Of a stretch of 64,000 nt of DNA, positions 33,651 to 38,067 are shown in pieces (position 1 is the first letter of the stretch; each line of letters starts with the position of its first letter). This DNA is from Granulicella sp. (GTDB lineage: Bacteria; Acidobacteriota; Terriglobia; Terriglobales; Acidobacteriaceae). A model generated the notes under the pieces. That model was not told the DNA's origin and ran no database searches. It saw nothing but the letters and a program-made list of their open reading frames with translations. A program made the position numbers and the translations under genes. The stretch lies in contig DAHWNL010000021.1 in NCBI GenBank assembly GCA_027339965.1, positions 1 to 64,000 of the forward strand, read 5' to 3'.

Positions 33651-34778
33651 CTAACTGGATGCCGGGCGAGCCGGGGTGTTGCTTTCCCCCGGGTCAGGGT
33701 CGGGCGCTTTCGATCTGCCGCGAAGGTCGCCGATCAGGCCGTCGCGGGCGAGGGCCTGGGATGGGACGGAATCCTTCTGGACGATGTACTCATCCAGGAA
33801 GACGGCGACCAGAGCGGCGGTGGGGACGGCCACCATGGCGCCGACCACGCCGGCCAGGGCGGTTCCGGCCAGCAGCGAGATCAGCACCGAAAGCCCCATC
33901 AGATGCACGCGGCTGCGCATGATGCGAGGGGTGAGGAAGCCGCTCTCGATCTGTACATAAATCAGATAAAAGATGAGCACGCCGGCCATCTTGGTCCAGG
34001 AGTCCATGGCGGCGACGCCGGCGGCCAGCAGGACGGTGATGATGCCGCCAGCCACCGGGATGATGTTGAACAGGCCCATCAGCACGCCGAGCAGGAAGAA
34101 GTAGCGCACATGAAGCGCGGCGAAGACGACGGTGCTGGTGATGCCGAGGATGAACATGAGGGAGATCTGGCCGATGAACCAGCGGCTCATGCGAACCTCG
34201 GCAACCTCTAGCGTTCGGGCCAGGCGCTGCCTGGAGTCAATAGCCAAAAAGGAGAGCAGGTAGGAGTACAGGAACTCGCCCTCCAGCATGAAGTAGACGC
34301 ACAGGATGATGGCGGTGAAGAGATCGAAGACGCGTGAGAGCCAGAGCGGCGCTGAGGCTAGAAGGTATTGGGCGGTAGACGCGGCGGCGCTCTCGCCCTG
34401 TTCGGCGATGGAGTCAAAGCCCAGCTTGTCGGCCAGGGGAAGGCTCTTCACCTTGTCCAGAATACGGGGAATGCGCCGGGGAAGATCCGCGCCGAAGAGC
34501 CTGATGTCGCGCAGAACGGGCGGCAGGGCGACAACCAGCAGCAGTGCAACGGCCAGGGAGGCCGAGAGCACCAGGGCAACGATGGCCAAGGGCCGCGATG
34601 GAGACCAGCGGCCGATGCGCAGGTCCATAATGTTCTGCACCATGGGCATCATCACAACGGCGAAGAGGGCGCTGACGTAGACCAGTTCCAGCACCGAGCG
34701 CAGTCGCCAGGCGAGAACCAGACTTAGCGCGACCGCAAAGGCGAAGAGGATGGAGCCCTGAGCCGACGAAGAGCGCAG
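33651..34778 (-). CDS. AI-2E family transporter
   Basis: Multiple TM segments; 'IIPVAG', 'YVQIESGFLTPRIM', 'GVVGAMVAVP'. The frame stays open with a TM helix upstream of 34694; start possibly CTG 34778. Confidence 0.88.
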   Translation of the reverse strand: MRSSSAQGSILFAFAVALSLVLAWRLRSVLELVYVSALFAVVMMPMVQNIMDLRIGRWSPSRPLAIVALVLSASLAVALLLVVALPPVLRDIRLFGADLPRRIPRILDKVKSLPLADKLGFDSIAEQGESAAASTAQYLLASAPLWLSRVFDLFTAIILCVYFMLEGEFLYSYLLSFLAIDSRQRLARTLEVAEVRMSRWFIGQISLMFILGITSTVVFAALHVRYFFLLGVLMGLFNIIPVAGGIITVLLAAGVAAMDSWTKMAGVLIFYLIYVQIESGFLTPRIMRSRVHLMGLSVLISLLAGTALAGVVGAMVAVPTAALVAVFLDEYIVQKDSVPSQALARDGLIGDLRGRSKAPDPDPGESNTPARPASS

Positions 34779-35125: not shown

Positions 35126-35926
35126 TCAGCGAGTTCGGCGTGGCGGAACAAGCTTGATCTGGAAGATGGTGGGCCACTCCTTGCCGGTGACGAAAAGGCG
35201 ATCGTGCTGGGGATCGTAGGCGATGCCGTTCAGAACGGCCTCGGCGTCCAGCCGTTCCACCGAGGGAAGGATGCCGGTGAGGTCGATCCAGGAGAGGACG
35301 CGGCCGTTGCTGGGAGAGATGCGGGCGATGCGGTTGCTGTGCCAGACGTTGGCGTAGATCTGGCCGTGAATGTACTCCAGCTCATTCAATTCGGTTACGG
35401 GCTCTCCCTGGTCGGTGACCAGCAGGCTGCGGACGGTGTGGAAGTCTCTGGGGTCGCGGAAGCGCAGGGTGGCCGAACCATCGGAGGTGATGATGTTAGT
35501 TGCATCGCGGGTCATGCCCCATCCTTCGCCGCTGTAGTGAAAGGTGGCGATCCGGCGCAGGGTGGCGCGGTTGTAAACGAAACCAATGTGCGACTGCCAG
35601 GTCCACTCATACAGGTTTGGGCCCCAGTTGATGATGCCTTCTCCGAAGTACTCCGGGGGAAGCTCAACATGCTGCAGGACGCGCCCGGTAGCCGGGTCTG
35701 TCACCAGCACCTGGGAGTGTCCCTTGAGCCCGGTGCCCTCATAGAACTTGCCGTTGAGATAGAAGAAGCCCTCCGTGTAGGAGGAGGTGGAGTGAGGAAA
35801 GGTGGCGACAACGGTGTAGCCATAGACGGGGGTGGGGCTCTGGGCCTTGCTGCAGGCGGTAGCCAATGAGACAGGAAGCAGAAGGAAAGAGACCAGCAGA
35901 AGGTTGGCGAGCGGGGTACGACGCAT
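35126..35926 (-). CDS. Glutaminyl-peptide cyclotransferase (lipoprotein)
   Basis: 'PH...YTEG', 'YFGEGI', 'GEGWG', 'SDGS', 'LNELEYI', 'VLNGIAY', 'VTGKEWP'; lipobox LATAC. Confidence 0.93.
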   Translation of the reverse strand: MRRTPLANLLLVSFLLLPVSLATACSKAQSPTPVYGYTVVATFPHSTSSYTEGFFYLNGKFYEGTGLKGHSQVLVTDPATGRVLQHVELPPEYFGEGIINWGPNLYEWTWQSHIGFVYNRATLRRIATFHYSGEGWGMTRDATNIITSDGSATLRFRDPRDFHTVRSLLVTDQGEPVTELNELEYIHGQIYANVWHSNRIARISPSNGRVLSWIDLTGILPSVERLDAEAVLNGIAYDPQHDRLFVTGKEWPTIFQIKLVPPRRTR

Positions 35927-36137
35927 GATCTCAAGGATAACCTGTGCCCTCCGCAGCACGCAGGAGCCCTGGAGAAGCAGCCCGAGGGCGCAGGATCGCA
36001 CGCGAATCCAACCCTTGCCGGATGCTGGGCACGGGCCAGCCGCGGGCGTCCTGATAGAAAGACGCCCATGGCGGCAGGGCCGTCGTGTGCTCGCCGTGGG
36101 GCGCGTGCTCGGCACCGAGGGCGGCTCAGCAAGAGCC

Positions 36138-36845
36138 CTAGTGACCGGTAGCCGGCGCGGCGCTGCGCAATGTTGCCAGGATCGCTTCCGCTGTGTCGGC
36201 GGGCGTTCGTTTCTCGGTTTCGATGCAGTGCGTGGCGATGCGCTGGTAATGAGGGTGGCGGTGGTGAAAGCGGCGCTCGGCCAGATTGAGGTCGGCGAGA
36301 TTGGGGCGGGCTGTGGCGGAGGGGTCCGCGGCCTGCGCCGCGCAACGGGCGACGAGAATCTCAAAGGAAGCAGAGAGATAGATCACGACGGTGTGGGGCG
36401 TCTGTTCCAGCAGCAGACGGTTGCCGAGCTCTTCGGGAGCTCCGCCGCCCAGGGCGATTACCACCTGCCGCTGGCCGAGCAAGGAGGCCAGGGCCGCGGA
36501 CTCGAGATGGCGGAAGTGGGCCTCGCCGTCTTCGGAGAAGATCTGCGGGACGGACCGGTGCTGGCGCATTTCAATCTCGTGGTCGAGATCCAGGAACCGC
36601 CAGCCCAGATGCTCAGCCAGCAGCCTGCCGGTCGAAGTTTTGCCGGATCCCATAAAGCCTGTGAGAACGATGCGGTCGATGCCGCGCAGGGTTTGGATGG
36701 CAGAGTCCGGGTGAGGTGGAAGACTACATGGGGTGGGGCCTTCGGCCCGGGAGCGATCGGATGGAGTGGGTTTGCCGAGGCTGGAGTCTTTGGGCATGGA
36801 GTGGGTGGCGGGGTGGGTAGGTTCGGTCAGGGTTGCTGTACTCAT
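36138..36845 (-). CDS. aroK: Shikimate kinase
   Basis: 'IVLTGFMGSGKTSTGRLLA', 'DLD.EIE', 'GEAHFR.LE', 'ALGGG', 'RP'; RBS GGAG. Confidence 0.93.
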   Translation of the reverse strand: MSTATLTEPTHPATHSMPKDSSLGKPTPSDRSRAEGPTPCSLPPHPDSAIQTLRGIDRIVLTGFMGSGKTSTGRLLAEHLGWRFLDLDHEIEMRQHRSVPQIFSEDGEAHFRHLESAALASLLGQRQVVIALGGGAPEELGNRLLLEQTPHTVVIYLSASFEILVARCAAQAADPSATARPNLADLNLAERRFHHRHPHYQRIATHCIETEKRTPADTAEAILATLRSAAPATGH

Positions 36846-36893
36846 TTTCGTCTCCGGAGTTGCTTGCAGGGGAAGCAAAGTTGGTTTTGCTGC

Positions 36894-36926
36894 AAAAGAA
36901 AACCGCAGACCCTGTGGGCTGCGGCT
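36894..36926 (-). terminator. Attenuator terminator upstream of aroK
   Basis: Minus strand AGCCGCAGCCC-ACA-GGGTCTGCGG followed by TTTTCTTTT, 49 nt before the aroK start. Confidence 0.8.
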
Positions 36927-36955
36927 CGGTGACTAGCTGTTGATCTCTGGGTGAA

Positions 36956-37039
36956 TCAGGAAATCTCACAACGCCGCCGGGCCGCTGGTGGATACCAGTA
37001 GCAGTAGCTAAATCGGCCGGTGGTGGGGCTGAAGCTCAT
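36956..37039 (-). CDS. Aromatic-rich leader peptide MSFSPTTGRFSYCYWYPPAARRRCEIS
   Basis: 27 codons; cluster TTT-AGC-TAC-TGC-TAC-TGG-TAT; lies between the promoter and terminator preceding aroK. Confidence 0.8.
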   Translation of the reverse strand: MSFSPTTGRFSYCYWYPPAARRRCEIS

Positions 37040-37047
37040 TGTGCATG

Positions 37048-37076
37048 ATGCTAGCGCAAAGCCGGAGATGTGGCAA
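37048..37076 (-). promoter_or_regulatory. sigma70 promoter of the aroK leader
   Basis: TTGCCA-N17-TAGCAT, with the leader ATG 8 nt after the -10 box. Confidence 0.7.
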
Positions 37077-37093
37077 GTGCGCCGGCCACCGTG

Positions 37094-37194
37094 TGTTCGT
37101 AGCAAGTGAAAATGTCCGGTTTTCTTAGCACATGAAGTGTCCGGTTTTGTTTTCTGAACCCGCCGCCGTGTCGTTAGCACATGAAATGTCCGGT
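37094..37194 (-). mobile_element. Orphan IS end (IS481/IS1202-like) with three transposase-binding-like repeats
   Basis: 5'-TGT terminus followed by TAGCAAGTGAAAATGTCCGGT, TAGCACATGAAGTGTCCGGT and TAGCACATGAAATGTCCGGT; no transposase nearby. Confidence 0.7.
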
Positions 37195-37481
37195 GGAAAC
37201 AGGAAGGGTGAGGGCTCATCACCCGCCGGGCAAATCCTCGCCCTGGTCCACCGGCTTCCATGCCCACGGCCGGAGTTCACGAGGCAGGCGGGGATGCCCG
37301 GGGCCCAAAACCAGAGGCGGGAGGTTGAGAGGCCGGTCGCGCGGAGCCTACGTACCGATGGCGGTCCGGCAGCACTTTTTGAGAGAGTGCATGCCGGGGC
37401 GGGTGGTCAGCAGTCTCTGGTCCCGTACCTTGTCCTCCCAGCTCTTTTGCCAAAGAGAAGACGGAACCCTGGAATTCAGGC

Positions 37482-37994
37482 TTATCCCACTTTCTGGGCC
37501 TCAGGGGACATCTTGCAGTTTTGCGCATGCGCATGCGCTTCTTGTATCTGTTTCGATGGCCACTCGATCTTTCCTGGAGTGTAGCTTGCGTCGCGGACTG
37601 CATCCCGCAACAGTTCATCTGTTACATAGGCCCCAGGCTTGAGCGTCAGAATTGCTTCTCCCCGCCTCAGGTTGAACTGAACGCTGGCCACCCCAGGAAC
37701 GGTCTTCAGACGGTGAATGATGCCGAAGGAGGTGAACGGGATGGCTACGCCGAAAACCTGAACCTTGACAACGCCGCCCATGGCCATTGCCTGAGGTTGC
37801 CGGAGCGTTGCAGCGCTGGATTTTGACGCAGAAGCATTCGACACGGGCACATAGGCACAGCCGGCTTCCGGCGTGGCCGCTCTGCGCGGCTTCGCGTAGG
37901 CTGTGGCGCAGGCTGAGAATGCGGTTACGACAAGCAGGGCTGTAGCATAGGCAGTAGACTTCCTTGCCGCGGTGAGACTCACTACAAAAGACAT
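37482..37994 (-). CDS. Secreted heavy-metal-associated (HMA)-fold protein lacking the CxxC motif
   Basis: 'VKVQVFGVAIPFTSFGIIHRLKTVPGVASVQFNLRRGEAILTL...LRDAVRDASYTP' follows the HMA pattern; signal-peptide-like N-terminus. Confidence 0.7.
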   Translation of the reverse strand: MSFVVSLTAARKSTAYATALLVVTAFSACATAYAKPRRAATPEAGCAYVPVSNASASKSSAATLRQPQAMAMGGVVKVQVFGVAIPFTSFGIIHRLKTVPGVASVQFNLRRGEAILTLKPGAYVTDELLRDAVRDASYTPGKIEWPSKQIQEAHAHAQNCKMSPEAQKVG

Positions 37995-38067
37995 CCAAGC
38001 ACCTCGCTTCTTGAATTGTGACTCCAAACTCTCTCGAACCTGTGCGCAGTGGGATAACATCTTCGGC

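Follow-up and report, generated by a model that had tools for sequence, protein, structure and literature searches.

The aroK gene lies on the minus strand of the window (the whole stretch of 64,000 nucleotides of Granulicella DNA that was analysed), and upstream of it a short open reading frame (ORF) with a dense cluster of codons for aromatic amino acids is followed by a GC-rich hairpin and a U-tract (Table 1). An original prediction, made from the letters of this DNA, had described these parts as a leader-peptide attenuator; when we re-read the sequence and refolded it, the promoter, the 27-codon ORF, the antiterminator and the terminator were all found in the positions assigned to them in that prediction, and the leader peptide is indeed the tail of a 103-aa ORF with a GTG start. 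The promoter is the sole promoter-like site recognized by a promoter scan within 36000-38000; shuffled sequences contain 0.4 ± 0.7 such sites, and the promoter alone is weak evidence. The leader ORF (37039-36956) translates as MSFSPTTGRFSYCYWYPPAARRRCEIS. Its ATG at 37039 is 8 nt past the −10 box, and its stop codon is 27 nt past the GCGGC core of segment 2, within the long inner hairpin (36979-36929) that is closed by the antiterminator and is possible in both states of the RNA. The Shine-Dalgarno (SD) element of aroK is ~40 nt beyond the U-tract, and in close homologues a GGAGACGA-type word precedes the aroK start.

Table 1. Features of the aroK locus and its neighbours, in window coordinates.
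Feature	Position	Strand	Evidence or remark
Sigma-70-type promoter, TTGCCA-17-TAGCAT	37048..37076	-	Homologous leaders have TTG[C/A]..TAnnnT boxes in the same place
Leader ORF, 27 codons, probably leaderless or nearly so	36956..37039	-	Conserved in 15/30 aroK loci
CGA-TTT codon pair (Arg9-Phe10)	37010..37015	-	14/14 distinct protein-fetched aroK leaders
Control codons Phe10-Ser-Tyr12-Cys-Tyr14-Trp15-Tyr16 (segment 1)	36992..37012	-	Codon table, stall-zone models
1:2 protector hairpin hiding the GCGGC core; possible pause hairpin	36981..37002	-	Folds, covariation
2:3 antiterminator, GCGGC (36985-36981) with GCCGC (36925-36921)	36921..36985	-	Pairing models
3:4 intrinsic terminator, stem 36926-36901, U-tract to 36894	36894..36926	-	Minimum-energy fold
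Shine-Dalgarno GGAG of aroK	36852..36855	-	Read from sequence
aroK, shikimate kinase, 235 aa	36138..36845	-	Pfam SKI, E 9.5e-41, above cut-off
Glutaminyl cyclase gene, downstream	35126..35926	-	PF05096
AI-2E family transporter gene	33651..34694	-	PF01594; follows aroK in many relatives

AroK contains a P-loop together with DLD, FR, GGG, RP and RxPHY words, which we take to be shikimate kinase motifs; its scores with the NCBIfam shikimate kinase models are all below the equivalog cut-offs, and its one match in the genome is itself. In the window the glutaminyl cyclase gene lies between aroK and the AI-2E transporter gene, which may also be under the control of the attenuator. No NCBIfam match was found for the leader ORF. 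A scan of 36700-37600 against Rfam gave five matches (best E = 3), none to a leader family and all far below gathering; there was no match at the gathering score to the Rfam leader families (Trp_leader RF00513, Phe_leader and others). The T-box fold (RF00230) was found neither at the leader nor elsewhere in the genome (98.86% complete), in which TrpR and TRAP were not found either.

Upstream of the leader promoter, the sequence is a different one in almost every relative. In the window, two to three copies of a 21-nt repeat (37110-37194) lie directly upstream of the −35 box, and a further copy is present at G000:C50:92566 (G000 being the window's genome), where the flank resembles by eye the DNA upstream of the leader of another locus (L003); these repeats are possibly remnants of insertion-sequence ends. 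Among the contigs of three RNA runs, one 56-nt piece matches the repeat upstream of the leader and none matches the leader itself, a blank that carries no evidential weight. A separate terminator-like hairpin upstream of the repeats (37206-37224, minus strand) probably insulates the aroK promoter.

How often such a leader could arise by chance was assessed with the set of 42,309 ATG-started ORFs of 10-45 codons in the whole genome. Only 3 of these have both a promoter-like site 5-12 nt before the ATG and at least 4 Phe, Tyr or Trp codons in 7, and among the three only the aroK leader reaches 5 in 7. A filter blind to codon identity (promoter, ATG, short ORF, hairpin and U-run) leaves 6 candidates genome-wide, two of which are the aroK leader and its paralogue. 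Since both filters leave so few candidates, a chance origin of the leader is disfavoured. At G000:C13:16848 (plus strand) a promoter is adjoined by a short ORF in which two His codons stand close to the end, with a hairpin and a U-run, before a gene that resembles histidyl-tRNA synthetase; it is a possible candidate for a His leader.

The leader in relatives and its other copies

We searched 61 genomes with AroK and read the best 30 loci, which were fetched by protein similarity alone and all belong to the window's genus (the window's own locus is included). The ORF, the GCGGC core and the terminator occur together in 15 of these loci, while the other 15 are without the core-terminator arrangement. 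The two groups differ also in the coding region: in 14/15 leader-bearing loci AroK has an SD-led start codon located 31-66 residues ahead of the P-loop, while an SD-led start of any kind is found in 3/15 leader-free loci, and an N-terminal extension, which in the window consists of ~55 residues rich in Pro, Ser and Thr (36680-36845, minus strand), has variable length in the relatives with a leader and is mostly absent in those without. In the leader-free loci an ECF sigma gene pair often lies shortly before aroK.

Homologous leaders in the Acidobacteriaceae/Terriglobia head aroK, DAHP synthase, trpB or chorismate mutase genes. A pattern search of 401 genomes of the family recovered the element in other genera, before aroK and DAHP synthase, and a covariance model built from 19 copies gave matches in 43 of 150 genomes sampled from the family and in 6 of 150 sampled from the phylum; these are lower bounds, because the filters were strict and the model is biased to the aroK copy. 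One phylum match outside the family (E 4.5e-4) precedes ORFs that resemble chorismate mutase and prephenate dehydratase. Scanning species-representative genomes gave 110 exact matches, of which the 80 with titles are all from Acidobacteriota, including Granulicella, Edaphobacter and Terriglobus; the aroK copy is carried by Granulicella mallensis, Edaphobacter aggregans DSM 19364 and Terriglobus albidus DSM 26559. Altogether we collected 135 distinct leaders (53 before aroK, 52 before DAHP synthase, 21 before trpB, 3 before chorismate mutase and 6 unassigned), and thus every leader with an assigned next gene (129/129) precedes a gene of the aromatic pathway.

The 14 distinct leaders fetched by protein all keep Phe, Tyr and Trp codons. 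Arg9 (CGA), Phe10 (TTT) and Trp15 never change, Tyr12 shows synonymous changes only (TAT/TAC = 9/5), and Tyr14 is replaced by no residue other than Phe (3/14); Tyr16 is replaced by Trp in two leaders and by Phe in one, and Cys13 once by Tyr and once by Ala. Substitutions are therefore mostly synonymous or aromatic-to-aromatic. Past the control codons, frame shifts are found in several homologues while the RNA core is undisturbed, such that the core is in frame 0, 1 and 2 in 108, 19 and 8 of the 135 leaders. The aromatic content falls after the control codons from 0.30-0.39 to 0-0.09 over the 135 leaders, a count that is partly circular because 95 of them were fetched by patterns containing the control codons (14 were fetched by protein and 26 by the model). 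The aromatic codons are fixed 12-27 nt before the GCGGC core, and the length and N-terminus of the leader vary freely. The pattern of substitutions and frame shifts matches what is expected if codon meaning counts up to Tyr16 and RNA structure beyond it. The comparison of upstream regions that had been proposed as a check of the original prediction shows the Phe/Tyr/Trp cluster conserved in the leader-bearing loci, and the terminator and protector stems covary.

Two further biases accompany the control codons. CGA-TTT makes up 71 of the 88 Arg-Phe pairs in the leaders and is in frame in 71/71 cases, at a distance from the core that varies; 34 of the 71 come from rows fetched by a pattern that fixed TTT and left CGA free. 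In long ORFs CGA represents ~9% of Arg codons. A tRNA-Arg(UCG) was not called in the genome, where the sole called reader of CGA is tRNA-Arg(ACG), which decodes this codon by slow wobble; CGA-TTT is possibly a slow step before the control codons. Cys is found two codons before Trp in 34 of the 53 aroK leaders and is confined to aroK copies, while the aroF leaders scored (46) and the trpB leaders scored (21) have Arg at this position without exception. Both the codon pair and the Cys may be inherited accidents or tuning.

The original prediction had also proposed a leaderless start, and the homologues support it in outline. A TAnnnT box 3-12 nt before the start codon is found in 125/135 leaders vs 37/1500 control ATGs, the former share being somewhat inflated by a start picker that favoured starts with a −10 box. 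In 102/135 leaders the −10 box is 8-10 nt before the start, and this usual spacing allows a 5' end 0-3 nt before the start codon; an SD-like word is present in 2/135 leaders. In the alignment A2 (101 rows, one of which is a partial, terminator-only match) the start codon is aligned in 87-89 rows, directly after the −10 box. The best reading is that the leader mRNA would be leaderless or near-leaderless.

The window's genome has a second copy (locus L055, G000:C54:24705-24876, plus strand; E 3.7e-9 with the covariance model), whose leader reads MKLLYSPRFTPSLRYWPWPAASVE. It lies directly before trpB and heads the operon trpB-trpA-CM-aroF-proB-proA-tyrA, in which all gene names other than trpB and DAHP synthase were read from translations; proB- and proA-like genes thus sit inside an aromatic operon. 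At least one copy of the leader is present in 34/36 genomes of the genus. The copy at aroK is found in 14/36, of which 12 carry another copy at a different locus; the 32 non-aroK loci of the genus that were read comprise 26 before trpB, one at a contig end and 5 unparsed. Nearly all genomes of the genus thus have the trpB copy, to which the aroK copy has been added in some, or else the others have lost it; it is present in Edaphobacter and Terriglobus as well. The AroK tree requires at least three changes of leader label and leaves gain vs loss unfixed (L066 was scored there as lacking the leader though it carries one); it places the window's protein among the Acidobacteriaceae, with G. mallensis beside a genome of the same genus.

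No copy was found in the window's genome upstream of two extra DAHP synthase paralogues, both chorismate-binding genes or prephenate dehydratase. These extra paralogues (G000:C81:1081-1962 and G000:C70:133071-133952) are shorter, being without the N-terminal ~80 residues, and each heads a duplicated cluster of secreted-looking proteins. A few loci depart from the general pattern: L082 (G166:C7:211130-211311) matches the model, but the ATG upstream of its control codons is in a different frame from them, and no gene of the aromatic pathway was noticed downstream; the leaders of L074 and L079, both before chorismate mutase, are without Trp; L037 and L040 carry ~270-290 nt of extra, repeat-like DNA between terminator and aroF that is absent in close relatives.

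RNA helices and ribosome-stall models

The terminator hairpin is part of the minimum-energy fold (z = −3.22; 2/200 shuffles fold as well); it escaped a simple scan for terminators, probably owing to a bulged C in its stem. In A2, which was fitted to the terminator and to one (shifted) register of the protector but not to the antiterminator, 98.1% of the terminator cells are paired with 47 two-sided changes (0/500 shuffles as high). The protector, in a register that pairs the Tyr-Arg/Cys-Tyr-Trp codons with the bases that follow, is 82.9% paired, with 17 two-sided cells vs 3.7 in shuffles. The five core pairs of the antiterminator are formed in 99.4% of cells, yet they are invariant and so without covariation; its extension is 33-64% paired in fixed columns and covaries weakly (score 0.053, with 14/500 shuffles reaching the paired share). 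When the arms of homologues were crossed, the native pairs won in 119/135 leaders for 3:4, 107/135 for 2:3 and 84/135 for 1:2, vs 44/135 for the non-pairing 1:3 control. All the shuffle, covariation and crossing counts are inflated, because the homologues are related.

Some details of the predicted pairings had to be revised. The antiterminator, which had been thought to take most of the 5' arm of the terminator, takes only 5 of its 11 pairs, or about half. That the control region sequesters GCGGC holds for a short hairpin centred on the Trp codon (37002-36981), which is the conserved protector; the longer CCGGCCG/CGGCC pairing appears in the centroid fold of this copy but is absent from the consensus fold of 19 homologues. 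The general claim of a trpL/pheL-type architecture is upheld by the conservation of the leader, the covariation of terminator and protector, the invariant antiterminator core and the copies at other aromatic-pathway genes. The locus thus combines a short upstream ORF with clustered end-product codons, an intrinsic terminator between leader and first gene (identified computationally), an antiterminator mutually exclusive with it, and a 1:2 hairpin that overlaps the control codons and hides segment 2. At the level of sequence comparison we regard the helices, the parts, their order, their mutual exclusion and their conservation as established.

In the stall models the ribosome was represented by deleting the transcript as far as 8 or 12 nt beyond the first base of the A site (the narrow and wide footprints below), in line with the size of the ribosome footprint. 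In partition-function runs on the window's copy, the cases in which the antiterminator won (codons 11-14) depended on base pairs between the liberated 5' end and segment 4, and for this reason we adopted constrained-energy runs with the 5' end dropped, applied to the 135 leaders. Over these leaders the terminator is favoured by 11.2 kcal/mol when no ribosome is present; this energy gap narrows to 8.1 kcal/mol for an A site 27 or 36 nt ahead of the core and to 4.0-4.7 kcal/mol for one at 9-21 nt. The approach follows the scheme of PMC1183508 as outlined there. For the window's copy the gap with the narrow and wide footprint is respectively 7.4 and 4.0 kcal/mol at Phe10, 1.3 and 0.8 at Tyr12, 0.8 and 1.3 at Tyr14, and 1.3 and 3.6 at Trp15; at Tyr16 it is 1.1 with the narrow footprint, while the core is blocked with the wide one, and from Pro17 on the modelled ribosome covers GCGGC. 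The gap is never negative, as at equilibrium the terminator of this copy is ahead by ~1 kcal/mol even with a ribosome on the control codons; read-through would therefore have to be kinetic, with segment 3 emerging first and being captured. In these models Tyr codons are in the best stall zone, Trp is inside it or marginal and Phe is at its edge (Phe is within 30 nt of the core in 53/53 aroK leaders, and 9-24 nt before it in 17/53). It follows that Tyr would be sensed best, Trp probably and Phe weakly, and the response is expected to be strongest for Tyr, probable for Trp and weakest for Phe.

Proposed mechanism and its alternatives

We propose, with good though not complete confidence, that the leader is a ribosome-mediated transcription attenuator that would raise transcription of aroK when charged aromatic tRNAs are scarce. 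Transcription would start at the AUG or within ~3 nt of it, and the ribosome would load without an SD. The 1:2 hairpin would form first and may pause RNA polymerase. With Tyr, Trp and Phe plentiful, the ribosome would pass Pro17 and cover GCGGC, and the terminator would form, releasing an RNA of ~146 nt that ends near 36895. A stall on Tyr12, Tyr14 or Trp15 (less surely on Phe10) would instead block segment 1, leaving GCGGC to capture the emerging GCCGC while polymerase reads into aroK. Together with the trpB paralogue, the aroK leader would form a two-locus, ribosome-read regulon in a genome in which TrpR, TRAP and T-boxes were not found. The parts of this proposal are not equally firm: that the element is a ribosome-coupled switch we hold to be highly probable, that the switch responds chiefly to shortage of aromatic amino acids is likely, and whether one leader senses Phe, Tyr and Trp all three is evenly balanced: codons of all three types are kept, but Phe10 is at the edge of the modelled stall zone and a Phe-Tyr-Phe leader in C. 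glutamicum is reported to be indifferent to Tyr supply (PMC11802643).

Different inputs to the same switch may be considered in this light. Six of the seven control-region codons are UNN, with the slow CGA just before them, and the tRNAs that decode the U-initial ones (Cys13 and the five aromatic codons) are modified by MiaA/MiaB; both miaA and miaB are present in the genome. The main input might accordingly be general decoding speed or tRNA modification (the state of A37, or the supply of Cys or Arg), a view that also draws on the CGA-TTT bias, on the CGA reader without a called tRNA-Arg(UCG), on the Cys of the aroK leaders in place of the Arg of aroF and trpB leaders, and on the report that in P. 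aeruginosa loss of MiaA relieves trp attenuation (PMC13434334). However, Arg-to-Cys needs only a single substitution (CGC to TGC), with which the protector retains a G-U pair, and may be a single inherited event; every assigned target is an aromatic-pathway gene, and any aromatic attenuator is incidentally sensitive to modification. We consider this input unlikely to be the main one. It is most improbable that the ribosome is stalled by the nascent peptide in the tunnel together with a small molecule, in the manner of TnaC. The leaders do share an F-[ST]-Y-[RC]-Y-W word with Pro often next, but the residues after Trp mirror the control codons in the 1:2 hairpin, the frame shifts after the control codons and the freely varying length and N-terminus speak against a conserved peptide, and a ribosome stalled beyond Pro17 would sit on the core and so promote termination.

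Nor does the evidence favour a leader in which translation plays no regulatory part. Nucleotide identity is high across the control region, third positions included, as would be expected of a riboswitch or protein-binding leader with an incidental ORF; but the start codon is aligned in most rows of A2, substitutions respect codon meaning, the CGATTT word is always in frame, the Rfam scan gave nothing better than E = 3, and neither a T-box nor TRAP was found, so that we judge an RNA-only switch very unlikely. Finally, equilibrium favours the terminator in nearly all models, and trans-acting roles of leader peptides have been reported in the case of S. meliloti trpL (PMC7298713); a constitutive terminator could likewise free a small RNA or peptide with a role of its own, or merely dampen aroK. 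This would account neither for the invariant upstream GCGGC, which duplicates the 3' arm of the terminator, nor for the fixed placement of the aromatic codons before the core, and we give it very little credence.

Returning to the attenuator, a broader reading can be put forward tentatively, as a possibility that we think rather doubtful as a whole. The leader would act as a leaderless OR gate for Phe, Tyr and Trp, and the aromatic regulon of the Acidobacteriaceae would have been built by duplicating this RNA module, in place of repressors, at the heads of DAHP synthase, trpB, chorismate mutase and shikimate kinase genes, with the copies retuned by codon changes. In this same tentative scheme the in-frame CGA-UUU would serve as an intrinsic timer for ribosomes that initiate at the extreme 5' end. 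There are 3.1-3.3 Phe codons per leader before trpB and aroF vs 1.8 before aroK, and Cys in place of Arg could add a sulfur or tRNA-modification input to the aroK copy.

Relation to known systems and significance

The E. coli aroL gene encodes a shikimate kinase that is repressed via TyrR and TrpR. The same step is subject to repression by aromatic amino acids as is proposed for the aroK locus, but through protein repressors acting at the DNA and not through attenuation, and no TrpR match was found in the window's genome. The E. coli trpL and pheL leaders share with the aroK leader the 1:2, 2:3 and 3:4 helices, the control codons in segment 1 and an intrinsic terminator before the first gene (PMC1183508, PMC3082878); they respond to one amino acid each and control branch-specific operons, unlike what is proposed for the aroK leader. 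Both of these E. coli leaders are SD-led, and the aroK leader differs further in that its stop codon is inside the inner hairpin of the antiterminator.

The closest functional precedent is the aroR leader of C. glutamicum, likewise one in which mixed aromatic codons control a common-pathway gene. This leader precedes aroF (DAHP synthase), has Phe-Tyr-Phe and is reported to respond to Phe only, Tyr supply being without effect (PMC11802643), while another account words it as control by Phe and Tyr (PMC7356990); it is also treated in PMC4046766. By contrast, the aroK leader retains all three types of aromatic codon, the gene that it precedes encodes shikimate kinase, and its paralogue stands before a trp/aro operon; the two are likened by description only. 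Acholeplasma uORFC-13-1 is also a predicted uORF with a terminator before a shikimate-pathway gene (aroF), but as described it has an RBS and a Phe-coding U-run, belongs to another phylum and concerns DAHP synthase only (PMC8632094). The mycobacterial polycysteine "ribulon" resembles the system proposed here in having leaderless sensory ORFs at several loci that respond to one amino-acid signal; according to the same account those attenuators unmask a ribosome-binding site and sense Cys (bioRxiv 10.1101/834739), whereas the aroK leader works with an intrinsic terminator in the proposed scheme and is related to its other copies by duplication.

No paper on this leader family or on an aroK leader peptide was found in a literature search that took in a minority of subscription journals. 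In the supplement of PMC2965389, as far as its rows were covered, all 8 "shikimate" rows are bare gammaproteobacterial aroK/aroL terminator candidates with none annotated as a leader peptide, and the element is absent from 14/20 "deoxyheptonate" places and 30/62 Ellin345 rows examined. The mechanism as such would be that of the textbooks; what appears new, as read from the sequences, is a leader that is probably leaderless, carries three types of control codon, has shikimate kinase as its target and seems to have been duplicated into a small regulon.

These results provide a concrete candidate mechanism for the regulation of aromatic amino-acid synthesis in an abundant, poorly studied soil lineage, and would place attenuation at shikimate kinase, a target for which we found no published leader peptide. 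Cultured carriers of the aroK copy exist (the Granulicella, Edaphobacter and Terriglobus strains named above). With more than 130 leaders, and many paralogue pairs within one genome, the family offers a natural series on the relationship between the position of the control codons and the amino acid sensed, and the same series bears on how leaderless initiation couples to attenuation.
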